Below are positions 2,766-11,989 of a DNA stretch of 64,000 nucleotides, one piece after another (position 1 is the first letter of the stretch; each line of letters begins with the position of its first letter). The position numbers and the translations under genes are program-made. The stretch comes from a virus. The stretch lies in the IMG/VR virus record IMGVR_UViG_3300049435_000061, positions 1 through 64,000 of that record. One strand, given 5' to 3'. The notes below the pieces were generated by a model. The model searched no databases, had not been told where the DNA came from, and saw only the letters and a program-made list of their open reading frames with translations.

Positions 2766-3743
2766 ATGATCAGAAAAATGTCTGATAAGTCTTGTTATTT
2801 ACACCTGCGACTATTATCCTCAACACCTGTGAGCAGGGGTTACACCCTGCCTGGGGGCTGGGAAAAAGCTATCGGGGGATGGCTCGACTGGCTGCGCCTG
2901 CAGGGCCACCGAGACACCACGTTACGGACGCGGCGCGGACAGGTGCGTTCGCTGGCCCGCCAAAGCGGTGTTCGCCACCCCGCCGAAGTCGACGTCGCCT
3001 GCCTGGTGCGCCTGTGCAGTCGACCGGGCGTCAGTTCCGATCACCGGCACGGCCAGCGGGCGGCGCTGATCAGCTTCTACGACTGGTGTGTCGCCAACGC
3101 GGTCACCACCCACAACCCGGCTGCGGCGCTGCCCAAAGTGAAGCCGTCCAAACCCCGTCCCCGGCCCACACCCGACGAGGTGTGGAAACAGTTGGTGGCG
3201 TGCGCACCGCCGCGCGAGACGCTGATGGCCGTGCTGGCGTGCGAGGCCGGTTTGCGGCGTGCCGAGGTGGCCGCACTGCACTACGACGACCTGGTGCGCG
3301 ACCACACCGGGTGGCTGCTGATCATCAACGGTAAAGGCGGCAAACAGCGCGCCGTGCCGATCAACAACCGGCTGGCGCGGGTGCTGCGCACCCACTGTCG
3401 TGGCGGGTATGTGTTTCCCGGCAAAATCGACGGGCACCTGTCACCGGACGCGGTGGGGCGTGTCATATCACGGTTGATGCCGCCAGGGTGGACGATGCAC
3501 AAGTTGAGACACAGGTTCGCCACCAAAGGTTTCAACGGAACCCACAATCTGCTGGCCGTCAAAGAGGCGCTGGGGCATTCCAGTGTCGCGACCACGCAGC
3601 TGTACACGGCGATCAACCTCAGCGATGTTCGCTCGGTTTGTGACGCCGCAACCGAAGATTGGAGTGAATGTGACGATGGACCGGACCAAACTGCGGGGGC
3701 ACACAGAGTTCGAGCTACGACTGGCGTTACGCCAGGAACGTAA
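2766..3743 (+). CDS. int: tyrosine integrase, apparently lacking N-terminal arm-binding domain
   Basis: GLRRAE, GKGGK, HKLRH, LGH, TQLYT catalytic motifs; adjacent to attP; start uncertain. Confidence 0.92.
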   Translation: MIRKMSDKSCYLHLRLLSSTPVSRGYTLPGGWEKAIGGWLDWLRLQGHRDTTLRTRRGQVRSLARQSGVRHPAEVDVACLVRLCSRPGVSSDHRHGQRAALISFYDWCVANAVTTHNPAAALPKVKPSKPRPRPTPDEVWKQLVACAPPRETLMAVLACEAGLRRAEVAALHYDDLVRDHTGWLLIINGKGGKQRAVPINNRLARVLRTHCRGGYVFPGKIDGHLSPDAVGRVISRLMPPGWTMHKLRHRFATKGFNGTHNLLAVKEALGHSSVATTQLYTAINLSDVRSVCDAATEDWSECDDGPDQTAGAHRVRATTGVTPGT

Positions 3744-3920: not shown

Positions 3921-3980
3921 ACAAAAAACCCGCCGACCAGTGCACGATTGGAGTAGTGCACCGGCCAGCGGGTTTTGTTG
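3921..3980 (-). terminator. intrinsic terminator of the leftward early operon (possibly bidirectional)
   Basis: 17-bp stem 3929-3972, fully paired on minus strand with 3 G.U pairs, followed by U6. Confidence 0.8.
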
Positions 3981-4007
3981 TGTAGCAAGAATAGTCTCCT
4001 CGTTTTT

Positions 4008-4211
4008 TCACCCTTTCATTCGTTTGTGCACACCGATCAGCCGCGTGATGATTCGGCGCATCTCGTCTTCTATCGGTCCGTCGTCGGCGTAGCCTTCCAG
4101 GAAGTCGCGCACCAGCTTTGACGGCGTGGTGCCCTCCCGTTGGGCTTTCGACGCGGCTTTATGCCAGATGTCGTGGGGCACGCGGACATAGTGTTTTGGC
4201 GTTTCAGCCAC
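4008..4211 (-). CDS. ribbon-helix-helix DNA-binding protein
   Basis: HYVRVPHDIWHKAASKAQREGTTPSKLVRDFL. Confidence 0.7.
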   Translation of the reverse strand: MAETPKHYVRVPHDIWHKAASKAQREGTTPSKLVRDFLEGYADDGPIEDEMRRIITRLIGVHKRMKG

Positions 4212-4554
4212 CGTCGATCACCTCCTGCAAGACATCGAGATAGGGCACGTCGCTCAACTCTTCACCGTCAACCGTGTTGACGCCGACCGGTCCACAAAAG
4301 ATGTCACCAGGCAACAACTGTGCGCCGCCCAATGCGTACCACAGGCGTGTAGCCACATGGTTGGGTGGCAAGCCTTTGAACTTGCCCTCCTCGTCCATGC
4401 TGAATACGAATCGCCTGTCGTCTATCAACGTATACATGGCCTGCACATACCCGCCACCCAGCACCGCCTGGTTGAACGCCGGATATTCTATTGGCACGTC
4501 ACGGATTTCAAACGTACCGTCCGACTGGATGACCAGTGTCTTTGCCGTCTTCAT
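4204..4554 (-). CDS. DUF3846-like protein
   Basis: DEEGKFKGLPPNHVATRLW...GDIFCGPV; start-associated motif upstream. Confidence 0.65.
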   Translation of the reverse strand: MKTAKTLVIQSDGTFEIRDVPIEYPAFNQAVLGGGYVQAMYTLIDDRRFVFSMDEEGKFKGLPPNHVATRLWYALGGAQLLPGDIFCGPVGVNTVDGEELSDVPYLDVLQEVIDGG

Positions 4555-4585
4555 TGTTGTGTCTCCAATCTTGGTTGTTGTTTTT

Positions 4586-4653
4586 GGTCTGAACAGACCA
4601 GGATGCACACCCCAGGAGCAAAGCTCCTGTGATGTGCACCCCTACCTGTTCAG
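4586..4653 (-). repeat. intergenic hairpin element 1 (type A)
   Basis: CTGAACAG...CTGTTCAG long stem; upstream TGA inside CTGAAC; alternative stem GGTCT/AGACC. Confidence 0.9.
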
Positions 4654-5126
4654 GTCACAACGACCGTTGCTTGCGGTGGGTAGGGCCGCAGTGCCTTGGC
4701 GTGCGCAAACACCTGACGCGGGTTGAACATGGTGTTTCTCGCGTACATCGAATGTGGGTCACGCCACGGTCGACCGTTCACTTTGAACCATTCCCGGCCT
4801 TCATGCTCATCGAACCAAAGCGCCATGCCGTGGCAGAAGTCGTAGAAGTCTTCAACTGTTTCCACGAACGTCGGAATCGGTTGATGCATGTGCAATTCCG
4901 TGATCTGGTTGGGGTGGTAGGTGTTGGGCACGTTCAACAGGTAGTCGATGCACGCTTCGCGAACCCGAACGTTTTGCACGTTGAAACCGCAGTAGTAGCT
5001 CGGTGTGTGCACCGACATGGACAGGCCGGGTCGCCACGACACGACGGTCAGCAGCCCGTTGAAGTCTTCGACTGTCATGCCGTCGATGCTGGCTTGCAGG
5101 TCTGGTTGGTTTGATACCGTTTCCAT
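4650..5126 (-). CDS. hypothetical protein
   Basis: SAS-led ORF ending in element 1. Confidence 0.8.
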   Translation of the reverse strand: METVSNQPDLQASIDGMTVEDFNGLLTVVSWRPGLSMSVHTPSYYCGFNVQNVRVREACIDYLLNVPNTYHPNQITELHMHQPIPTFVETVEDFYDFCHGMALWFDEHEGREWFKVNGRPWRDPHSMYARNTMFNPRQVFAHAKALRPYPPQATVVVT

Positions 5127-5178
5127 TTCTCTGTCTCCAATCTTGTTTTACCGCTTCGCGATACGCCGCTAAGCGGCT

Positions 5179-5259
5179 GGTCTAAACAGACCGGGCACCA
5201 CAGTGGCCCAGGTGCGACACATGTCGCACCTGAAACACCGTGGCACCCTACCTGTTCAG
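5179..5259 (-). repeat. hairpin element 2 (type A)
   Basis: CTGAACAG/CTGTTTAG; TGA 5256-5258 in 5' arm. Confidence 0.9.
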
Positions 5260-5648
5260 GTCCTTTCTAGTATTCGTCGTTCCCGTTCCGACATGAGTCG
5301 CGCGTCCGGCACCCACAACCCCTGCTGCCCACGGCACTGGATCGGGCGATCCAGGGGTCGTGGATTGGACAGCAGCCAGTGATACTGCCCACGTGCAGCC
5401 CAGCGGCTTCGGCTGTTGTCGACCACGCCGACCAGGTCGACCACGCCGACAATCACGCCACCTGGCATACCGACCAGCAGGTCATAGCCTCGTTTTTCCA
5501 AGACTCGGCCACCCTCATAGTCGAAGGTTTTCCCGGCGTGAATCGCTAGCGGCCCACGGTATTCTGTGGTCCACGTGCGGTTTTCGACGTCCTTCCCGAA
5601 CGCGATGATGGCATGCGCCCATGGCTGTCTGACGGTGAGGGCATACAT
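5256..5648 (-). CDS. ASCH domain protein
   Basis: ALTVRQPWA...GKDVENRTW...YRGPLAIHAG. Confidence 0.85.
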   Translation of the reverse strand: MYALTVRQPWAHAIIAFGKDVENRTWTTEYRGPLAIHAGKTFDYEGGRVLEKRGYDLLVGMPGGVIVGVVDLVGVVDNSRSRWAARGQYHWLLSNPRPLDRPIQCRGQQGLWVPDARLMSERERRILERT

Positions 5649-5821
5649 TATGCGAACTCCCATCTGCCGCAGCGGTTGCCGTTGACGTCGAAGACACGTC
5701 CGACGCCACTGTCGTCAACGTTGATGTCGTCGGCGACTTTGTGCAGGATGCGTTGCAGCTCACCGATAGGATCATCGGTGAAAGCTGACCCGTGGTCGGT
5801 GTACACGGTGAGAGTGAACAT
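5648..5821 (-). CDS. hypothetical protein
   Basis: Coupled ORF MFTLTVYTD...DVNGNRCGRWEFA. Confidence 0.65.
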   Translation of the reverse strand: MFTLTVYTDHGSAFTDDPIGELQRILHKVADDINVDDSGVGRVFDVNGNRCGRWEFA

Positions 5822-6255
5822 CACACACCCACCAATACAACCTCGTGCCATTGCAGGTCGGCCCACTTGGTGTCCCAGTGCGCTGCCCAGCGCAGAATCC
5901 CTTGCGGATTCAGCACATAGACATATTCGGTATCCCAATACTCATGGGCGTCTTCAGGTGTGGCGTAGTGCTCATTGCCTTGCTCACCGATGTACCGAAC
6001 ACCGAACCCTGCCACTAGCTCAAAGCGGTCAGGGTCGGTGGGATACATCTCACCAGTGGGGTTGCCGTCGAACGATGACCACCCTGCCGGTGTATGTAAC
6101 AAGGTGCTCACTACGCGGTCGATACCATGGGTGGCAATCAACCGTTGCAGTGTTTGCACCTTGCCCCACTGACCATCTGGGTAGCCATCGCTGTGGACAT
6201 AGACCAGTCGGATGCCGGAATCGGTTTCTGCACCGATAAGGCTTCTGGTACTCAT
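5821..6255 (-). CDS. phage hypothetical protein (MSTRS...YVHSDGYP type)
   Basis: SAS-led ORF. Confidence 0.75.
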   Translation of the reverse strand: MSTRSLIGAETDSGIRLVYVHSDGYPDGQWGKVQTLQRLIATHGIDRVVSTLLHTPAGWSSFDGNPTGEMYPTDPDRFELVAGFGVRYIGEQGNEHYATPEDAHEYWDTEYVYVLNPQGILRWAAHWDTKWADLQWHEVVLVGV

Positions 6256-6320
6256 TGTTGTCTCCAATCTTGTTTCATTGGCGCAAGCACCAACTACCGG
6301 CTACGCCGGTCGGATGTTCA

Positions 6321-6385
6321 GGCTGAACAACCGTGGAAGCCAACACCGCTGCTAGGCAGCGGAATTGGCAACCATGACGGTTCAG
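6321..6385 (-). repeat. hairpin element 3 (divergent)
   Basis: CTGAAC/GTTCAG; TGA 6382-6384 in arm; alternative stem GGTT/AGCC. Confidence 0.85.
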
Positions 6386-6483
6386 TGCATTGTCATGCTG
6401 GTCTCAGCGATCAGGAACAGCACAACCACGTACAGAACAACGAGCAGAAACAGCTCGGCTACAACCAGTCCGGTGTAGCCCAC
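6382..6483 (-). CDS. 33-aa single-TM peptide
   Basis: MGYTGLVVAELFLLVVLYVVVLFLIAETSMTMH*; stop falls exactly in element 3. Confidence 0.55.
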   Translation of the reverse strand: MGYTGLVVAELFLLVVLYVVVLFLIAETSMTMH

Positions 6484-7187
6484 TGACGTGGGTCGTCGTC
6501 GCCGAATTTGACCGGCATCACCAGGCCTACGAAGTCGTCGCCGATGGTGACAGTCAACGGCTTCTGGCCATACCCGTATGCACTGTCGTGGGCATAGACG
6601 AAGATCCGGCTGGCCCGGTCGCCGGTGCCTTTCACCTTGCCGAACGATGCGAGATATTCGGCGGTGAAAGCCGTTGCGTGACGCGACTTGGCGAGCACGT
6701 CACGCATGTTTTGCGCGGTTTGTGCCGTCACCTTGGCCGTTGAATCCGGCGCTGGCAGCGGCGGCAACGACACCGACTTGGGGAACAGTCCACGGAACTT
6801 CGGGAAGTCGACGTCGGCGATCCTCGCCGCAGCCAAGCTGCCGTCGTTGAATGTGAACTGCACCGACTTGCCATCCGATGTGACATCGACGGCACGCCAG
6901 CCCTCTTCTGCACGCTTTGTCTTGGCGGATTGGATGAGCCGCTTGACGTCGTCCAGATAGAGTGACATTGACACCTCGTCGCCGTCGAGCACCTTGGCCC
7001 GTGAAACGCCCAACCGGAACCTGTCGGTAGCGATTGCGAGAACCTGGTCTTTGTCGAATTCAAGGCGCACCACGTTGATGCCGGGCAGTGTCACGTCCGT
7101 GGACGCAAACAGGCTCGCGTCGCTGAGGATTCGGTGCAGATCGACCGATTGAACCGTGCCCAACTTAAGGGTGGTTGCTGTACTCAT
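6459..7187 (-). CDS. DNA polymerase III beta-clamp-like protein (shorter than DnaN)
   Basis: FASTDVTLPGINVVRLE...AIATDRFRLG...DFPKFRGLFP...GLVMPVK; 242 aa. Confidence 0.8.
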   Translation of the reverse strand: MSTATTLKLGTVQSVDLHRILSDASLFASTDVTLPGINVVRLEFDKDQVLAIATDRFRLGVSRAKVLDGDEVSMSLYLDDVKRLIQSAKTKRAEEGWRAVDVTSDGKSVQFTFNDGSLAAARIADVDFPKFRGLFPKSVSLPPLPAPDSTAKVTAQTAQNMRDVLAKSRHATAFTAEYLASFGKVKGTGDRASRIFVYAHDSAYGYGQKPLTVTIGDDFVGLVMPVKFGDDDPRQWATPDWL

Positions 7188-7259
7188 TTTTGTGTCTCCA
7201 ATCTTGTTTGACCTGTTCAACACCGGCACTTTGCCGGTGTGACCGGTCGACAGACCGGT

Positions 7260-7319
7260 TGGTTCTGAACAGACCAGGCTACCCACAACTTGTGGTTGTG
7301 GGCACCCCTACCGGTTCAG
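7260..7319 (-). repeat. hairpin element 4 (type A)
   Basis: TGA 7316-7318 in arm. Confidence 0.9.
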
Positions 7320-7726
7320 TCGAGTGTGACGAAGCTTTGCCACGGCAATGGGTCAGCCCATTGGCGCTTGACGCTTTCGGCGTGTTCACGCGCCTCGGAT
7401 TCCGTTGCGAACCAGTAGGCCCGCAGGTCGTGCTGGTCGTCGCCGATCCAGTCGTGCTCGGGTTTGAAATTGTCGACCGGCACCCAACACTGTGGATCGC
7501 TGCTGCTGTCGACGTCGAACGGAACACACAACGTTTGACCGCCAAGCAGTTTGACGGTTTGGCCGGTGATGCGTGCCACGCCGACCTCGATGTCGACTAT
7601 CCGGTCAGGGTCGGGTTCATCGTCGCCCGCACATATCGGGAGAACGCTGACACCCCACCCTTGATGGAAGGTGAAACGCACCGACAGATCCAACCACCGT
7701 TCCGCCGCTTCATATGTGTCACTCAT
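7316..7726 (-). CDS. hypothetical protein
   Basis: SAS-led ORF. Confidence 0.75.
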   Translation of the reverse strand: MSDTYEAAERWLDLSVRFTFHQGWGVSVLPICAGDDEPDPDRIVDIEVGVARITGQTVKLLGGQTLCVPFDVDSSSDPQCWVPVDNFKPEHDWIGDDQHDLRAYWFATESEAREHAESVKRQWADPLPWQSFVTLD

Positions 7727-7747
7727 GTTTGTCTCCAATCCTGTTGT

Positions 7748-7805
7748 GGTCCTAAACAGACCAGGCAACCACCCGCTGCCCCGGGTGGCTCCCCTACCGG
7801 TTTAG
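7748..7805 (-). repeat. hairpin element 5 (type A)
   Basis: CTAAAC/GTTTAG compensatory change; TAA 7802-7804 in arm. Confidence 0.9.
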
Positions 7806-8008
7806 TCGCGGAGTCGTTCTATCTTGTCGTCGCATCGTTGGCAGATGGGTACCTGCCCCAACACGGGGTGGTCGCGCAACCCGTTGGCGGGGTTGGTGCA
7901 CTTGGCGAACCATTCGCACAGTGCGTACCCGTACCCATATCTCCGATGTTGTTCCAGCAGTGCATCGCCGGTTTGTTGCACCCGGTCGTCAATGTTGAGG
8001 CGGCTCAT
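7802..8008 (-). CDS. small Cys-rich protein
   Basis: CEWFAKC...ICQRC; coupled ORF. Confidence 0.7.
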   Translation of the reverse strand: MSRLNIDDRVQQTGDALLEQHRRYGYGYALCEWFAKCTNPANGLRDHPVLGQVPICQRCDDKIERLRD

Positions 8009-8511
8009 TTCGGTGCCACCTCACTGCACTGCCACACCCGCACGTTGACGTCGACATGCACGGCGTTGTGTGCCGTCCAGTGGTCGCGGTGGAAAAACCA
8101 GAACCGGGTGGGACGTGTCTCACCTGTGTCAGTCAACGTGTTGACTGGCACCGAACCGTACAGCCCACCGGAAAAGTTTCCGTTGCCACTGGATTGCAAG
8201 TGCCACGAGCCACCGTTGATCCGGCGTCCACGATCCGATGTGGCATCCGACGTTTGTACGCCGCCACTCGGTGGATGGGATTGTGCGTCGCCGAACCACA
8301 CGTAGCTGATTCGGCGCGTCACGCCATCGGCGAACTCGACCCAATCGCCTTCCAGTGGGAGCGGGTTGGCGAGACGTTTGGTTTGACGTTCATTAAGCAA
8401 CCCAATGTCTTTCGGGTCGGGTGTGAACACCGGGTGCTCACCGCTGAAATTCCAGCAGCGCCACACCTCACTGTCCGCCGAGACGATGCGCGGTACTTCT
8501 GTTGTGTTCAT
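8005..8511 (-). CDS. DUF4121-like protein
   Basis: GDWVEFADG...GNFSGGL...LTDTGETRPTRFWFFHRD; family recalled, not searched. Confidence 0.55.
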   Translation of the reverse strand: MNTTEVPRIVSADSEVWRCWNFSGEHPVFTPDPKDIGLLNERQTKRLANPLPLEGDWVEFADGVTRRISYVWFGDAQSHPPSGGVQTSDATSDRGRRINGGSWHLQSSGNGNFSGGLYGSVPVNTLTDTGETRPTRFWFFHRDHWTAHNAVHVDVNVRVWQCSEVAPK

Positions 8512-8531
8512 TGTGTCTCCAATCTTGTTGT

Positions 8532-8589
8532 GGTCTAAGCAGACCAGGCAACCACCCGCTTACAACGGGTGGCTCCCCTACCGGCTTAG
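8532..8589 (-). repeat. hairpin element 6 (type A)
   Basis: CTAAGC/GCTTAG compensatory change; TAA 8586-8588 in arm. Confidence 0.9.
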
Positions 8590-8834
8590 TCCCTTTCGGC
8601 GGTGATTGCTTTGGCCGGGACTATCACTGTTGTGGTGTTGTCGTCGTCGGCGAGTACGGCGAACGCGCGGTGAAATTCCCGCGTGGTGAGTCGCACCACA
8701 CGCCCGAATCGGCGTGGTTCGCCGTCGAACTGCCACGACACCCGGTCACCACGTTCGATACGGTCTGTTGCATCGAGTATGGTCTTGCTTGGCGGGCAGG
8801 CAATGTCCAGCGGCTTGTGCTGTTTGATACCCAT
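8586..8834 (-). CDS. hypothetical protein
   Basis: SAS-led ORF. Confidence 0.7.
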   Translation of the reverse strand: MGIKQHKPLDIACPPSKTILDATDRIERGDRVSWQFDGEPRRFGRVVRLTTREFHRAFAVLADDDNTTTVIVPAKAITAERD

Positions 8835-8856
8835 TTCTTGTCTCCAATCTTGTTAC

Positions 8857-8918
8857 GGTGTTTGAACACACCAGCCCCCACACAGGCACGGATGTCTGTG
8901 TGGGAGAGTCATGTTCAA
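8857..8918 (-). repeat. hairpin element 7 (type B)
   Basis: TTGAAC/GTTCAA; TGA 8915-8917; alternative stem GGTGT/ACACC. Confidence 0.9.
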
Positions 8919-9250
8919 CTGATGTAGGTTCCGACGACGACACTGTCATAGTCGTATCGGGTTTCGACACGGCCACGGTCGTCTTCGATAACAGGCCAAC
9001 GGAACACAACACCGGAATAGAACGAATCCGACTGGTACAAATCCCAGTCGGTGATCCCGATGTTGCGTGCCAGTCCATCGCAGTCGGTGGTGTCATACCA
9101 GCGATTGCGATACTGGACGAAACGCGGTGAGAATTCATCCTCGCCGGTCACGTAGTCGAAGTCTTTGCGAGCCTCAACCGGCAGCTGGTCAAACGCCACC
9201 AGCTCACGCCAGTGGTAGTTGGTCGTGATTTTCACGTGCTTGTCCATCAT
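8915..9250 (-). CDS. hypothetical protein
   Basis: ORF ending in element 7. Confidence 0.75.
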   Translation of the reverse strand: MMDKHVKITTNYHWRELVAFDQLPVEARKDFDYVTGEDEFSPRFVQYRNRWYDTTDCDGLARNIGITDWDLYQSDSFYSGVVFRWPVIEDDRGRVETRYDYDSVVVGTYIS

Positions 9251-9523
9251 TCACTTCCCAACGGGGTATTCTTCGACAAGTTTGCGCAGGCCGAACATGC
9301 TGTCAGACGGCAGTTCCCGCACATAATGTGTGAGCACGGATGCCTGACCGACATCCTGCCCGTCAATCAGCACCCGCGCCGTCTTGTGGTCGCGGGCACC
9401 GGCAGGCATTAGCTCTGCGCGACCTTCGCGGGCCGCTGTGAGCACCATGCGGCGCGCTGCCGAATAGTTGTGCACGGCCAGCGCGTCACGGACCTGCGCG
9501 ACGAGGGTGATTGTGTTACCCAT
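9251..9523 (-). CDS. hypothetical protein
   Basis: SAS-led ORF. Confidence 0.7.
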   Translation of the reverse strand: MGNTITLVAQVRDALAVHNYSAARRMVLTAAREGRAELMPAGARDHKTARVLIDGQDVGQASVLTHYVRELPSDSMFGLRKLVEEYPVGK

Positions 9524-9566
9524 TGTTGTCTCCAATCTTGTTGGCGCGCAGCGCGTTGCTACGCAA

Positions 9567-9629
9567 TGGTGCTGAACACACCAGCAGCTCACACGGACGC
9601 GAACGCCCGTGTGGCTGAGTCATGTTCAG
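9567..9629 (-). repeat. hairpin element 8 (type B)
   Basis: TGA 9626-9628 in arm; alternative stem TGGTG/CACCA. Confidence 0.9.
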
Positions 9630-10549
9630 TTGTAGTCGGGTTCCAGCTGGTCGTAGTGCGACTTGCGTCCCGCCACCAGAATTTTGTCGGTGACACTGAA
9701 GATGGATCGCACCACGTTGTCGTTGACGGCCAAGTTGCCGTCATCGTCCAGGTAGTCGACGGTACTGCCTTTCAACCACCCTTGGATGTACGCACGGCTG
9801 CTGGCGGCGTCGAACTGTTCGACGTCCAGTTCTGTGCAGACCAGCAGTGCGACGGCCTCGGCTTGGAACTCCCGAATGTCGCGCGGGTGCTCTTTTTTGG
9901 TGCCGTGGTCTTCGGTGTGGCCCAACAGAATGTGCGCCCACTCATGGATCATTGTTTTGAACGGCGACACAGCTACCGGGTTGAGCGCAAACTTGCGGTC
10001 AACACTGTAGCCTTGCACGTTGCCGTCGTGATGGCTGAACCGGGTTTCGGTCACATCCAACACGTCGGCGGCCTGCTTGCGATCCCAGCTGGGCAACGTC
10101 GGCATCGGCAGATCGGGTCCTTCCGTTTGGAACAGCTGGAACACTGAGGCTTTCGGGTAGAACCCGACAACCTTCATCTCTGCTTTACCGTTGGCTTTGA
10201 GGATCGTGTTGCCGTCGTGGTCACGTAGCGGCGCGAACTGCGGGTGGTTCACCCACAGCGCGGAGCCGGGTCCGCTGATCACTTTGCGGTCCAACGACTG
10301 CCATTTGCGGAACGTTGCTATCGGCTCAAACTGCCCGGTCTGCATAAGCACCAGGAGAATGTTGAGCATCGAGTAGCGGTGAAACCGGTTGTAGCAGTTC
10401 GACAACCTTCCCGGCGCTGTCAGCGCGAACTGAAGAACCGCGACCAGATCAATCTTGCCGTTGTCGTGCAACGGCAGGTCAGACTTGGTGACGTCGCGGC
10501 GACCTTTGCTCGGCTTGGACGCCTTGCGGGTTTGGGTTGCTGTTGTCAT
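9626..10549 (-). CDS. ArdC-like ssDNA-binding / zincin anti-restriction protein
   Basis: FHRYSMLNILLV...ATFRKWQSLDRKV N-domain; HEWAH and EFQAEAVA zincin motifs. Confidence 0.75.
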   Translation of the reverse strand: MTTATQTRKASKPSKGRRDVTKSDLPLHDNGKIDLVAVLQFALTAPGRLSNCYNRFHRYSMLNILLVLMQTGQFEPIATFRKWQSLDRKVISGPGSALWVNHPQFAPLRDHDGNTILKANGKAEMKVVGFYPKASVFQLFQTEGPDLPMPTLPSWDRKQAADVLDVTETRFSHHDGNVQGYSVDRKFALNPVAVSPFKTMIHEWAHILLGHTEDHGTKKEHPRDIREFQAEAVALLVCTELDVEQFDAASSRAYIQGWLKGSTVDYLDDDGNLAVNDNVVRSIFSVTDKILVAGRKSHYDQLEPDYN

Positions 10550-10571
10550 TTTGAGTCTCCAATCTTGTTTT

Positions 10572-10634
10572 TGGTGCTGAACACACCAGCAGCACACACA
10601 GGCACGGATGTCTGTGTGGCTGAGTCATGTTCAG
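10572..10634 (-). repeat. hairpin element 9 (type B)
   Basis: TAA 10635-10637 abuts CTGAAC; upper stem nearly identical to element 7. Confidence 0.9.
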
Positions 10635-10967
10635 TTAGTCGCCAATGGCGTAGCCGTCGATGCCGCCGCAGCGACTACATTCGACGGCGTCATGCCAGGC
10701 GTGTTGCCGATATACGGCGTCGTCTTCACTGTGGCAGTAACGGCAGCGCACTTTCGGCGAAACATAGTGCGCCGCTTTAGGTATTGTCGGGTCAGCGTGA
10801 AGCCATTCACCCATGCCGTATGATCCACCGTTCGGATCGTAAACGAGCTGTTCATCACATGTCTTGCAGTGGTGAACGTCTGGCAGTATTTCAACGTCAA
10901 TGGTGGGAAGTGTGCAGTAGTTGCCTCGTTTGGCATCCGCAAACATCTCTAACGTTGTGCTCATCAT
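10635..10967 (-). CDS. Cys-rich hypothetical protein
   Basis: Three CxxC pairs; SAS-led. Confidence 0.75.
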   Translation of the reverse strand: MMSTTLEMFADAKRGNYCTLPTIDVEILPDVHHCKTCDEQLVYDPNGGSYGMGEWLHADPTIPKAAHYVSPKVRCRYCHSEDDAVYRQHAWHDAVECSRCGGIDGYAIGD

Positions 10968-10983
10968 TGTCTCCAATCTTGGT

Positions 10984-11082
10984 TGGGCTGAGATACCCAG
11001 TGGCGCAGTCAGACGCAACTGTAAGCGTCGCCAGGGGCGGCGAGATGCGCTGTTGGCGTCTGACTGGCCAAGTGTTTCTCAG
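10984..11082 (-). repeat. hairpin element 10 (divergent, long)
   Basis: CTGAGA/TCTCAG base, CAGTCAGACGC/GCGTCTGACTG stem; alternative stem TGGGT/GCCCA; TGA 11084-11086 adjacent. Confidence 0.75.
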
Positions 11083-11083
11083 A

Positions 11084-11233
11084 TCAGTGCGTATGTTCGT
11101 ACAAGGCAATCATTGTCGCTACTGTCACAACGACAACGAGTAGGCACAGCATGATGTGAACAACGAGCAGCGCGGCGGATGTCGCGCCAATCATCATCAC
11201 GGCGATGCGCAGGGCATCGAGTGCGGCGTTCAC
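11084..11233 (-). CDS. 49-aa membrane peptide
   Basis: Manual ORF, GTGA-coupled, hydrophobic. Confidence 0.55.
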   Translation of the reverse strand: MNAALDALRIAVMMIGATSAALLVVHIMLCLLVVVVTVATMIALYEHTH

Positions 11234-11457
11234 AGTGCGGCCCACCAGAAGCGGCGGACGGCGCGGTCAAACTCGTGTTGTGCGTGCATACGGTCAATCA
11301 CATTCTCACGCTGCGGCTTTTGTGTCGGCACGAAACGTATTGTGGTGACCGGTGCGACCGGGTGGCTTGATTGCTTGTCGAAGGCGAGTCGCACGATATG
11401 GAACTCGGGCGGACGCGGCGGCACGACGTTCAGCTTTGGGCTTCCAGGTACATGCAT
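11230..11457 (-). CDS. hypothetical protein, first gene of early operon
   Basis: SAS variant upstream. Confidence 0.6.
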   Translation of the reverse strand: MHVPGSPKLNVVPPRPPEFHIVRLAFDKQSSHPVAPVTTIRFVPTQKPQRENVIDRMHAQHEFDRAVRRFWWAAL

Positions 11458-11477
11458 TGCGATTCTCCAATCTTGTT

Positions 11478-11955
11478 GCTAGTGAAAAGCGCACTAGCAC
11501 GCGGTCGAGGACATCTATAAATCCCCGTGAAACCCAACCAGTCGGTGAGACTGGTTGGGAATCATGGAAATTCAAGATTAGAGGAGACTATTCTCAACTA
11601 TTACAGCTCACTACAATTTCACGGTGCGGGTCGCGGGACACAAGTCTCAGATAAATGTTCTCGCAGAAGCTTCATCAGCATGACACGCACTTAAGTCGGA
11701 TACTCTCGTGGGCTGCATTCGTCTCTATAGGGCATATGTTCATTGCGCGTAGACGGTTTCGGTCACTCTTGAGTGGTCGCTGGTCGTCTCGGTCGTTGGG
11801 CGCGGCTTCGGGCTTTGCACTGATCAACGGTGGTCGTAGCGCGTCTCATATGTCTGTGTCTCTCGGGCTGGTTCACGGAGTGGGTTCAGGCGCGGAAGCG
11901 GCTGCTGGTCAAACGGTGTCCCTGGGACTTGTTTTGATCGGTATGTACTTGTACA
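11478..11955 (-). ncRNA. candidate structured 5' leader or sRNA
   Basis: No credible ORF; several hairpins; anti-SAS segment at 11573-11588; five GAGAC copies. Confidence 0.45.
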
Positions 11956-11959
11956 TCCG

Positions 11960-11989
11960 ATCATAGTAAGACGGGTGTACGGAAGTCAA
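11960..11989 (-). promoter_or_regulatory. SigA-like promoter for the early operon
   Basis: TTGACT-N18-TATGAT. Confidence 0.7.

Follow-up and report, generated by a model that had tools for sequence, protein, structure and literature searches.

Stop-anchored hairpins and a shared start motif at the gene junctions of a phage accessory operon

Related intercistronic elements in phages

The early transcript of phage T7 (R0.3-R1.3) is polycistronic, with RNase III hairpins of 50-60 nt or more between its cistrons. These hairpins contain internal loops and no U-tract. Each stays on the 3' end of the upstream message, and the ribosome-binding site of the next cistron lies close behind it. We know of no description of stop-codon anchoring, an invariant leader after the hairpin, or a competing mini-hairpin at T7 sites. 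In Cluster K mycobacteriophages (PMC3203893) and Cluster EF Microbacterium phages (PMC7302621), a start-associated sequence (SAS) is found with an upstream inverted repeat. The repeats of this element, the ESAS, are imperfect, 17 bp long, and separated by 4-13 bp; the authors considered RNA pairing unsupported and favoured DNA-binding proteins (PMC3203893, PMC7302621). In T4-type phages, gene shuffling is mediated by PeSLs (promoter-early stem-loops), conserved regulatory cassettes that combine a strong sigma-70 promoter with a terminator stem-loop such that every gene is its own transcription unit (PMC2839356, PMC4122927). These three are the closest known systems to the modules analysed here.

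The modules were found in an uncultured phage from soil (record IMGVR_UViG_3300049435_000061), of which we analysed the first 64,000 nucleotides, hereafter the window. Each module follows the same order: upstream stop codon, hairpin P1, the nucleotides of a mini-hairpin P2, spacer, start motif (also termed SAS), and start codon. The motif shares several features with its namesake. It is asymmetric and unusually conserved, has a Shine-Dalgarno core, and sits a few nucleotides before mostly ATG starts. In both systems 10-19 copies occur in a single orientation before non-structural genes only, across varied gene families; an inverted repeat often precedes the motif, and the upstream stop is sometimes within conserved sequence. 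One cassette gene (110 aa) has a homologue in phage Jeon, located in the right arm that bears SAS copies. However, the motifs themselves are unrelated (GGGATAGGAGCCC or GGGAAAGGACCCC there, AACAAGATTGGAGAC here). Unlike those of the ESAS, the arms here are 25-45 nt, strongly covarying, and stop-anchored, and are accompanied by a competing second helix and an antisense partner of the motif in the leader.

The likeness to T7 lies in a long, early-type transcript with intercistronic hairpins, at which cleavage may also occur here. The elements have no sequence or Rfam relationship to T7 RNase III sites, and in contrast to T7 the host is probably an actinobacterium of the Mycobacteriales. PeSLs are similarly short conserved cassettes around small non-essential ORFans in hyperplastic regions, with insertions, deletions, and replacements among relatives coinciding with the cassettes. 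They differ in that the modules here have no promoter and no U-tract, their conserved part being a translation start signal. The original prediction regarded the combination of features as undescribed. This needs narrowing given the SAS/ESAS and PeSL precedents, while we found no description of a long covarying stop-anchored hairpin with a competing second fold in PMC3203893, PMC7302621, or PMC2839356. The new feature is P2, a mini-hairpin that competes with the base of P1 and itself covaries.

Layout of the operon and its modules

About 18 small accessory genes form one minus-strand operon (gene region 4000-11500). A single promoter (~11989) drives their transcription to a U-tract terminator (~3950), and no promoter-like sites were found on the minus strand at any junction. 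The polycistronic transcript is ~8 kb long. Hairpins were sorted into types A, B, C, D, and E, with at least five types within the one operon. Its features are, in the direction of transcription:

11960-11989, minus strand: sigma-70-like promoter TTGACT-18-TATGAT, the only one of the operon (10 of 12 consensus matches)
11478-11959, minus strand: untranslated leader of ~480 nt without a credible ORF; holds the anti-SAS
11463-11477, minus strand: first SAS copy, variant ...GGAGAA, ahead of the gene 11457 to 11230; no stop-anchored hairpin before it
10969-11082, minus strand: J1, with P1 10988-11082 (95 nt, type D), P2, and SAS 10969-10983; TGA ends 1 nt before the stem
10555-10634, minus strand: J2, with P1 10577-10634 (type B), P2, and SAS 10555-10569; TAA abuts the stem; ArdC-like gene directly downstream
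9528-9629, minus strand: J3, with P1 9572-9629 (type B), P2, SAS 9528-9542, and one additional small hairpin; TGA in the 5' base
8840-8917, minus strand: J4, with P1 8863-8917 (type B), P2, and SAS 8840-8854
8515-8589, minus strand: J5, with P1 8535-8589 (type A), P2, and SAS 8515-8529; TAA in the 5' base
7731-7805, minus strand: J6, with P1 7752-7805 (type A), P2, and SAS variant AACAGGATTGGAGAC 7731-7745
7194-7319, minus strand: J7, with P1 7265-7319 (type A), a weak P2, extra hairpins, and SAS 7194-7208; clamp-like gene directly downstream
6260-6385, minus strand: J8, with P1 6323-6385 (type C), extra hairpins, and SAS 6260-6274; a strong alternative hairpin is built with a second CUGAAC copy
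5133-5259, minus strand: J9, with P1 5182-5259 (78 nt, type A, z -10.4), P2, an extra hairpin, and SAS 5133-5147
4561-4653, minus strand: J10, with P1 4589-4653 (type A), P2, and SAS variant ACCAAGATTGGAGAC 4561-4575
3921-3978, minus strand: canonical intrinsic terminator at the operon end, a GC-rich stem then UUUUUU, as read from the sequence
2766-3743, plus strand: tyrosine integrase (context only), convergent with the operon terminator

All 10 non-overlapping junctions carry a module, in one orientation, and none was found elsewhere. The other seven junctions are ordinary overlapping stop/start couplings without a module. This shifts the emphasis of the original prediction, in that the module belongs to non-overlapping junctions and not to every gene. 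This distribution bears on whether the elements could be functionless selfish or neutral repeats, of REP or MITE type, spread through intergenic gaps. Their many copies, subfamilies, and local similarity would suit such an origin. However, their restriction to one operon and one orientation, the occupancy of all non-overlapping junctions, the fixed register to stop and start codons, and compensatory changes maintaining two helices in three phages make it highly improbable.

Competing helices, start motif, and leader

We compared the source phage (G000) with two other uncultured phages, G001 and G002, which have 14 or more elements (G001) and 10 elements (G002) of the same architecture. The resulting set of 34 comprised 24 elements from G000 and G001 and 10 from G002. 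At the 10 junctions of the source phage, P1 is 54-95 nt long with arms of 25-45 nt and a folding energy of -28 to -58 kcal/mol (z -4.4 to -10.4 versus shuffles). The 10 predicted hairpins, each leading to the shared start motif, are thus all present. At eight junctions the 5' arm includes the upstream stop among its first 4 nt, and at the other two the stop ends 0 nt (J2) or 1 nt (J1) before the stem, exactly as predicted, and the optional small hairpins reappeared as extras between P1 and the SAS at J3, J7, J8, and J9. Across the three phages, 23 of 34 elements had the stop in the initial 4 nt of P1 (binomial p = 4.5e-5 against 1/3). In the remaining 11 it was at most 11 nt upstream of P1, and it was never deeper inside the hairpin. 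Conservation of the element starts one nucleotide before the stop codon.

The stem covariation and sense-strand G.U bias of the original prediction were both upheld. In types B/E, 97.9% of cells were paired and 9 of 22 pairs had changed on both sides. None of 500 shuffles was as good. All shuffle-based significance here is inflated, because the compared elements are paralogous, non-independent copies in three genomes. The lower stem of type A was paired in 95.5% of cells, with 7 of 14 pairs compensatory, and an independent RNAalifold run on 19 elements of the three phages returned 21 pairs, 14 of them compensatory. G.U pairs were far more frequent on the sense strand (79 of 596) than on the antisense strand (14 of 507), and the sense fold was the stabler in 19 of 24 elements (Wilcoxon p = 5e-4). 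These results identify P1 as a selected single-strand structure of the sense strand, and the strong covariation together with the G.U asymmetry points to folding as RNA. Its upper stems and loops vary freely in sequence, while type A retains an internal loop (GGUAGG / CUGGU) across two phages.

P1 is neither a terminator nor a promoter, because 0 of 34 elements had four consecutive T in the 12 nt 3' of P1 and no junction has a promoter, while the operon end uses a U-tract terminator, as does that of a relative. Hairpins without a U-tract might still be partial attenuators or pause sites that grade expression along the operon, or might shield the RNA from Rho. They are stable, GC-rich, and start right after ORFs, with almost no naked RNA between stop and ribosome-binding site on which Rho could load. 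Nevertheless, the lack of U-tracts in an operon that ends with a canonical one, the silencing of distal genes expected from ten terminators in series, and the unexplained P2 render this reading quite improbable.

P2 arises when 4-6 nt after P1 pair with the lower part of its 3' strand. It competes with the P1 base and can form only when that base is open. We found it in all 24 elements of G000 and G001 and in 9 of the 10 of G002. With the 14 nt at the start of P1 blocked, the predicted fold was upper P1 plus P2 in 32 of 34. Matched P2 partners folded at -6.0 kcal/mol versus -2.8 +/- 0.3 when permuted, with 0 of 2000 permutations as low. At least eight distinct helix sequences occur (UGGUCU/AGACCA, UGGUGU/GCACCA, GAUGG/CCAUC, GAGUC/GACUC, GGAAC/GUUCC, etc.). 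P2 starts 11-14 nt from the P1 3' end in 22 of 23 tabulated elements, the exception being J8 (7 nt), and in type A this start coincides with the conserved internal loop.

This geometry raises the possibility of a termination-coupled RNA switch, in which a ribosome at the stop would cover the lower 5' strand of P1, the freed 3' strand would form P2, and a ribosome or signal would pass to the next start just past the helix end. Such a toggle could be the prokaryotic counterpart of shunt or reinitiation geometries, or could let upstream translation gate decay or cleavage. The stop position, the onset of conservation at the nucleotide preceding it, and the response to blocking 14 nt (about the reach of a terminating ribosome) are all consistent with such a switch. 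In addition, P1 is ~9 kcal/mol stabler than the alternative fold, so P2 would need a trigger such as a terminating ribosome. However, both states are predicted to leave the SAS open, and the switch thus has no obvious effect on the ribosome-binding site. Moreover, 11 of 34 stops are 2-11 nt upstream of P1, and at -9 to -11 nt a ribosome would hardly open it. Reinitiation would also be unnecessary since every unit has its own strong Shine-Dalgarno. We consider the switch rather unlikely.

The SAS consensus is followed by ATG, and its core, GAUUGGAGA, forms a near-invariant extended Shine-Dalgarno leader. Searching for AAGATTGGAGAC with at most one mismatch gave 11 minus-strand matches between 4561 and 11474. 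Allowing two mismatches gave 15 in the whole window versus 2.8 +/- 1.7 in shuffled sequence (0 of 100 shuffles reached 15). The whole 74.5-kb record has just two further copies, both weaker. The start codon is positioned 3-9 nt 3' of GGAG. In predicted junction folds the SAS is unpaired, and the spacer between P1 and the SAS is unstructured and A/C-rich (91% A+C; 53% A, 38% C).

An anti-SAS in the leader, at about 11573-11588, pairs with the first SAS copy. In the minimum-free-energy fold of the leader, CUCUAAUCUUG pairs with CAAGAUUGGAG (z -5.7). The pairing is common to all three phages and carries a compensatory change, with AAG/CUU in two phages and AUG/CAU in the third. Together with the conservation of the SAS beyond what 16S rRNA pairing requires (AACA... 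and ...AC) and the internal loop retained in type A, this pairing could reflect sites in P1 and/or the SAS for a phage or host RNA-binding factor or an antisense RNA co-regulating all units, for example a translational repressor, an antiterminator, or the leader anti-SAS acting in trans. We judge such co-regulation unlikely. The upper stems and loops of P1 are free in sequence, and at least five coexisting hairpin types are a poor fit to recognition by one sequence-specific protein. Among the operon genes we identified no candidate RNA-binding protein, and a second anti-SAS, in the terminator loop of the source phage, is not conserved in the relative.

Gene turnover between modules and a proposed processing model

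The original prediction that the elements may mark boundaries for swapping accessory genes agrees with the comparisons to both phages, in which they delimit units that are gained, lost, or replaced. Structural genes of G000 and G001 share 64-71% nucleotide identity, and modules 78-90%. Their operons have just five genes in common, in conserved order, with different cassettes in between. In G002 no homologue of the G000 terminase was detectable and only two operon genes are shared, yet this phage has 10 modules. The proposed covariance-model search for relatives was productive, in that a model built from G000 and G001 alone recovered 9 of 10 G002 modules (E 4e-9 to 8e-5). Neighbouring modules are more alike than non-adjacent modules, with a permutation p of 0.009 in G000 and none of 5000 permutations reaching the observed value in G001. 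Hairpin type beside orthologous genes varies among the phages; the ArdC-like gene, for instance, is flanked by type B in G000 and type A in G001, a mismatch that could come from gene conversion instead of cassette exchange.

Such turnover would also be expected if the elements were primarily DNA recombination sites, either attC-like folded ssDNA or PeSL-like homology cassettes, with incidental RNA structure. Elements are kept in three phages while the genes between them differ almost completely, and neighbours are most alike, as duplicative insertion predicts. Like an attC site, each element is an imperfect palindrome of 55-95 nt that sits at the 3' end of its cassette, with variable inner sequence and conserved outer cores. 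The stop inside the 5' base recalls integron cassettes, where it often lies in the first arm, and the bases loosely resemble attC cores (YTRAAC ... GTTYAG). However, the outer cores mismatch RYYYAAC/GTTRRRY at the fourth position, and there is no IntI and no attI/Pc arrangement. The sole recombinase nearby is a generic Xer-like tyrosine integrase (62 bits versus the 265-bit integron-integrase cut-off), convergent at the far end of the operon and not beside an attI-like site. The coding strand folds better, the register to stop and start is fixed, and each unit includes a conserved, functional Shine-Dalgarno. The SAS covaries with its RNA partner in the leader, and the cassette lacks the promoter of a PeSL. 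PeSLs also form mini-circles, while the one available run showed no deletion or circle junctions, a weak indication given that it consists of assembled contigs only. The earlier attC analogy, taken as membership, is not supported, given the missing integron integrase, the better-folding coding strand, and the leader partner of the SAS. As a primary function, DNA recombination appears very unlikely.

We favour, with a probability of roughly 45%, intercistronic punctuation at the RNA level, in which the modules provide processing or stabilisation and standardised translation initiation and also serve as homology linkers for gene shuffling. P1 would be a processing and/or stability determinant, much as the RNase III hairpins are in the early transcript of T7. 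If the RNA were cut 3' of the conserved internal loop, the upstream message would end in the upper P1 stem, left behind as a barrier against 3' exonucleases. The downstream message would then carry P2 at its 5' terminus as a protective stem-loop, and directly after it an open standby site and a strong ribosome-binding site of standard form. Alternatively, a plain exonuclease block at P1 without a cut would have a similar effect. P2 is real, covarying, and positioned as this processing model predicts. The stop inside the P1 base is not explained by processing alone, and the termination-coupled switch fits it better.

The observed basis for punctuation comprises the structures and their covariation, the sense bias, the stop/start geometry, conservation across three phages, and the similarity of neighbours. 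From these we infer that cleavage or stabilisation may take place, what P2 may do, and how recombination may proceed. As near-identical direct repeats of 80-100 nt, modules could supply homology for recombination, and accessory genes could be inserted, deleted, or replaced between them without redesign of expression signals. Processing or stabilisation at the modules would turn the 11 translational units into autonomous messages with similar expression. The occurrence of the same module around nearly all-different genes in two other phages suggests a reusable junction for expressing and swapping genes.

Operon layout, relatives and the start-associated motif

The phage under study (G000) is represented by a 74.5-kb record of soil metagenome origin that is 93% complete, and the window covers its first 64 kb. 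It encodes a siphovirus-type structural module (terminase, portal, protease, capsid and tape measure) as well as a tyrosine integrase. Its large terminase was closest to those of Mycobacterium abscessus prophages (67% aa identity), followed by those of Gordonia phages (~60%), so the host is probably a member of the Mycobacteriales. The operon lies on the minus strand and is plausibly expressed early. Its boundaries are as follows:

11989-11960, minus strand: sigma-70-like promoter, TTGACT-18-TATGAT (promoter scan)
downstream of the promoter, minus strand: leader of ~480 nt, followed by ~18 small genes
~3978-3921, minus strand: canonical terminator with stem and U-tract at the operon end, convergent with the integrase (sequence reading)

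A scan of the minus strand revealed no promoter-like site other than 11989-11960, upstream of the leader. Every non-overlapping junction (J1 to J10, in transcription order) carries a module that runs from the upstream stop codon through a long hairpin (P1), a competing mini-hairpin (P2) and a spacer to a start-associated ribosome-binding motif (SAS) and ATG. The operon is thereby split into 11 translational units, and seven further junctions are overlapping stop/start couplings. Few products were recognizable. They comprise an ArdC-like anti-restriction protein carrying a zincin domain, one protein resembling a sliding clamp and one of Arc/RHH-like type. The others had no assigned function, with several falling into PHROG families. 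Annotations conflict for the 242-aa clamp-like protein (6459-7187, minus strand), which matched the DNA polymerase III beta clamp central domain (Pfam, NCBIfam), while the PHROG family that it fits best carries the label RusA-like resolvase.

The same architecture was identified in two other uncultured phages:

IMGVR_UViG_3300017649_000007 (G001): 41.5-kb fragment, extended by metagenome contig L231
IMGVR_UViG_3300032236_000575 (G002): 63 kb, with terminal repeats, complete; operon region at 52.8-59.3 kb

Structural genes of G001 were 64-71% identical to those of G000 at the nucleotide level, and TerL was 72% identical at the amino acid level. G001 contained 16 SAS copies on one strand and 14 clean modules, with two more on L231. 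The G001 contig ends exactly within an SAS copy (locus L076, G001:41496-41507), which suggests that the assembly broke at the repeat. L231 (Ga0180217_1005131) overlaps the last 2606 bp of G001 at 100% identity and continues through the remaining operon, terminator and integrase.

No homologue of the G000 TerL was detected in G002, and its ArdC-like protein was ~41-45% identical. Nevertheless, a single G002 operon contained 11 copies of GATTGGAGA (SAS variant AATGATTGGAGATCA) and 10 stop-anchored P1/P2 modules. A covariance model built from G000 and G001 elements alone recovered nine of the G002 elements (E 4e-9 to 8e-5). As a phage without a detectable G000-type terminase carries the same junction architecture, this operon grammar is common to structurally unrelated phages.

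Other searches delimited its distribution. Neither megablast nor blastn matched the region to any of 50,697 phage records; among cultured phages, the element was not detected by DNA similarity. An exact 14-mer motif scan of genome contigs gave only single chance matches among the matches listed, and a 15-mer scan of viral contigs gave 84 loci, of which one alone (L076) had multiple copies. A covariance search found no element copies elsewhere in these phage genomes, outside the operons, and Rfam returned only two chance matches to miRNA precursors, far under thresholds. The ArdC-like protein as sole query for related loci found nothing; ArdC-like proteins at 55-72% identity are encoded on long metagenome contigs. 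Relatives of the integrase (L243, L244) had no such repeats.

The original prediction placed a shared start motif before the genes, and this motif was recovered as AAGATTGGAGAC. With at most one mismatch it occurred 11 times between 4561 and 11474, on the minus strand only; at up to two mismatches, there were 15 matches in the window against 2.8 expected by chance. SAS copies lay 3-9 nt upstream of ATG, counted from GGAG (5-9 nt at all junctions except J1), and in-window copies were restricted to the accessory operon in a single orientation. Two more SAS-like copies, each with two mismatches, are located beyond both the operon and the window, close to the right-hand end of the record (G000:72954-72968, plus strand, and 74156-74170, minus strand; locus L248). 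The consensus was AACAAGATTGGAGAC in G000 and AATGATTGGAGATCA in G002. The spacer between P2 and SAS was 53% A and 38% C. We also considered the SAS as a -10 element of per-gene promoters, which was ruled out by variable ATG spacing, the lack of a -35 partner and the negative promoter scan.

Alternative helices at the gene junctions

The junctions carry repeated modules with two alternative helices, a fixed stop/start register, an A/C-rich open standby region and a strong Shine-Dalgarno sequence. Stop-anchored long hairpins had been predicted at 10 G000 junctions, and all were confirmed. In 8 of the 10, the stop codon fell among the first four 5'-arm nucleotides; in the remaining two, it ended 0 or 1 nt ahead of the arm. 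For the P1 hairpins at these junctions, dG ranged from -28 to -58 kcal/mol and the z-score from -4.4 to -10.4. Their stems contain 20-37 pairs in elements of 54-95 nt, with conserved internal loops, and were sorted by sequence into types A, B, C and D.

The covariation claimed for these stems was likewise upheld, by compensatory changes in type B/E, type A and three-phage alignments. In 11 type B/E elements from two phages, 97.9% of cells were paired and both sides had changed in 9 of 22 pairs. Slid controls were 21-56% paired and 0 of 500 shuffles were as good, a statistic which overstates independence since the compared elements are paralogous copies in few genomes. The variety of helix sequences is support that does not depend on the shuffle statistics. 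The lower stem of 11 type A elements was 95.5% paired (7 of 14 pairs compensatory). RNAalifold, given 19 elements from three phages with no structure supplied, returned 21 pairs, 14 of them compensatory.

Folding of the sense strand, predicted from mismatches that resolve to G.U, was also evident: G.U accounted for 79 of 596 pairs on the sense strand versus 14 of 507 on the antisense, and the sense fold was the more stable in 19 of 24 elements. The least variable part of P1 was the stop triplet, U-G/A-A, with its partner. P1 is a selected structure on the sense strand, most simply RNA, and this strand bias disfavors a double-stranded palindrome or protein operator. The stop lay inside the P1 base in 23 of the 34 elements compared (24 from G000 and G001, 10 from G002; p = 4.5e-5 versus one frame in three) and at most 11 nt upstream of P1 in the other 11; in no element was it deeper within the hairpin. 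A T-run downstream of P1 was found in 0 of 34 elements, whereas the real terminator of the operon (~3921-3978) has a U-tract. Lacking a U-tract, P1 does not have the form of an intrinsic (Rho-independent) terminator.

P2 is a helix of 4-7 bp formed by the last ~12 nt of the P1 3' arm and 4-6 nt after P1, its loop being the 3' strand of the P1 base. It was present at 24 of 24 elements of G000 and G001 (-5.6 to -9.8 kcal/mol, versus -2.4 for shuffles) and at 9 of 10 in G002. Helix sequences varied by type (UGGUCU/AGACCA, UGGUGU/GCACCA, UGGUUC/GAACCA, GAUGG/CCAUC, UGGGU/GCCCA, GAGUC/GACUC, GGAAC/GUUCC and GUGAGG/CCUCAC). As MAFFT set the 3' strands in differing registers across the three phages, P2 was assessed by partner permutation. 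Matched partners from 30 distinct variants gave -6.0 kcal/mol versus -2.8 +/- 0.3 for re-paired ones, and 0 of 2000 permutations were as low. P2 started 11-14 nt from the P1 3' end in 22 of 23 tabulated elements, with J8 as the exception. In type A, this start coincides with a conserved internal loop, GGUAGG opposite CUGGU.

Full P1 was predicted to be more stable than the alternative fold by 9 kcal/mol on average. With the first 14 nt of P1 blocked, 32 of 34 elements were predicted to fold into upper P1 together with P2. These folds bear on the main rival among the mechanisms considered, a switch coupled to translation termination at the stop in the P1 base. Such a switch would best account for why P1 is anchored on stop codons, and why the stretch of P1 whose opening frees P2 matches what a ribosome covers. 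However, its output would not be obvious, as both states are predicted to leave the SAS open, and the third of elements whose stop lies upstream of P1 accord poorly with it. As a model, we consider it unlikely.

J8 (6260-6385, minus strand) has a much stronger alternative fold. There, GUUCAG, the 3' strand of the base, is matched to a second copy of CUGAAC further downstream (9 bp total), and this fold wins the unconstrained minimum-free-energy fold of the entire junction.

To our knowledge, the SAS/ESAS motifs of actinophages, catalogued from 2011 on, have no mechanism assigned to them. They are the nearest described system, known from Cluster K (SAS consensus GGGATAGGAGCCC; PMC3203893) and Cluster EF (GGGAAAGGACCCC; PMC7302621). 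The likeness extends to placement 3-8 nt upstream of starts, copy number, single orientation, confinement to non-structural genes and a Shine-Dalgarno core. In contrast, the motif described here (AACAAGATTGGAGAC / AATGATTGGAGATCA) is unrelated to theirs, with GGAG alone shared. ESAS are imperfect inverted repeats of 17 bp separated by 4-13 bp, directly upstream of the SAS, for which the authors reported no support for RNA pairing (PMC3203893), whereas G000-type stems have 20-37 pairs in 54-95 nt with strong compensatory changes. A 110-aa protein encoded at 10635-10967 has 57% identical homologues in Jeon-like mycobacteriophages. In Mycobacterium phage Jeon (L249, MH001450.1, 59.6-60.1 kb), the gene after this homologue is preceded by GGGAAGGAGCCC, near the Cluster K SAS consensus. 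One gene family thus travels in two different SAS systems.

Predicted leader pairing and gene turnover

In all three phages, the first SAS had no stop-anchored hairpin before it. It was instead predicted to pair with a complement (anti-SAS) ~100 nt upstream in the leader, enclosing two or three small hairpins. The first SAS and anti-SAS regions, by predicted pairing, are:

window 11478-11620, minus strand
contig locus L076, 1720-1880
contig locus L251, 3760-3930

The predicted partners were CUCUAAUCUUG with CAAGAUUGGAG in G000, UUUCCAAUCUU with AAGAUUGGAGA in G001, and CCAAUCAUU with AAUGAUUGG in G002. They include a compensatory change, AAG/CUU in two phages and AUG/CAU in G002. An RNA partner for the SAS places the system at the RNA level. 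On this model, the leader pairing looks like a conserved riboregulator that acts on the first cistron or, in trans, on every SAS copy. The transcript of the G000 terminator loop (3929-3972) contains CTCCAATC, a complement of the SAS core. This match is probably chance; the terminator of the relative (L231, reverse-complement ~4655-4690) lacks such a loop.

A more elaborate model, which we consider quite unlikely, combines both features. The modules would form a two-state RNA device read by the ribosome, in which termination flips P1 to P2 and thereby ties what becomes of the downstream unit (reinitiation, hand-over or cleavage protection) to upstream translation, and the SAS would serve as the anti-SAS target that sets expression of the whole array. 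If true, device and anti-SAS would constitute a portable, self-contained expression grammar into which unrelated phages could plug arbitrary accessory genes.

The original prediction also raised the possibility that the modules bound the swapping of accessory genes. Gene content between elements was compared in relatives, and the outcome agreed: shared genes keep their order, and gene sets between modules differ. Modules of G000 and G001 were 78-90% identical, above the structural genes. Five operon proteins were common to both phages in the same order (ArdC-like, 168-aa, clamp-like, 130-aa and Arc-like), followed by the integrase. Three genes precede ArdC in G000, versus at least 12 in G001. 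From ArdC to the 168-aa gene there are two units in G000 and one in G001, and from there to the clamp-like gene two genes in G000 and none in G001. G002 and G000 shared only two operon genes. The comparison covers these three genomes.

Adjacent modules resembled each other more than non-adjacent ones, both in G000 (0.69 vs 0.61, p = 0.009) and in G001 (0.86 vs 0.69; 0 of 5000 permutations as high). Either duplicative insertion at a module or local gene conversion would be expected to produce such neighbor likeness. The hairpin type beside orthologous genes was not conserved between phages, which suggests that modules exchange or homogenize independently of genes. No recombination joints between elements were seen in the assembled contigs of one soil-metagenome DNA run, from which the phage DNA probably derives.

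Integron attC sites carry the core motifs RYYYAAC ... GTTRRRY, fold on the bottom strand with extrahelical bases, and belong to arrays adjoined by IntI. The analogy drawn to them in the original prediction failed on integrase, strand and core motifs. The G000 integrase scored 61.9 bits on TIGR02249 against a cut-off of 265, with its best matches to generic Xer-type models, also under their cut-offs, and it is convergent at the distal end of the operon. The G000-type bases read YTRA(A/G)(C/T) ... (G/A)(T/C)TYAG and, in a comparison made without an attC covariance model, the coding strand folded better. Recombination sites acting at the DNA level were ranked among the lower alternatives, together with factor binding, attenuators and selfish repeats.

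The PeSL cassettes of T4-type phages offer the nearest evolutionary analogy. These combine a strong early sigma-70-type promoter with a terminator stem-loop, and bound indels and replacements (PMC2839356). The modules here likewise bound indels and replacements, with backbone genes in constant order and differing gene sets between them. Unlike PeSLs, they contain no promoter, the lone promoter-like site being upstream of the leader, and by sequence criterion no T-run follows the stem (0 of 34 elements).

Proposed punctuation of the transcript

T7-type RNase III sites are hairpins between cistrons that span about two helical turns, contain an internal loop and do not act as terminators. P1 shares this form, with its 20-37 pairs, conserved internal loops and lack of a U-tract, and T7 sites appear to be the nearest functional analogy. 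By this analogy, the most likely reading (probability roughly 0.45) is that the modules punctuate the mRNA as T7 early RNase III sites do, while doubling as homology for gene shuffling. Either cleavage would occur at the internal loop of P1, or P1 would act as a plain exonuclease block. The upstream message would retain the upper P1 stem as a 3' cap, and the downstream message would begin with P2 as a 5' stem-loop before a standard ribosome-binding site. Repetition of the modules would supply the homology for gene shuffling, like PeSLs in T4-type phages (PMC2839356).

The modules represent an architecture related to SAS/ESAS. Their upstream repeat clearly forms a conserved single-strand structure of the coding strand, with two mutually exclusive helices. 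This architecture yields concrete models: internal-loop cleavage with P2 as a 5' cap-like hairpin, or a ribosome-toggled switch. The modules could also supply standardized intercistronic parts for synthetic operons in actinobacteria. That three phages place the same punctuation around near-wholly different genes is relevant to how accessory genes, for example those for anti-defense, are taken up and expressed by phages.
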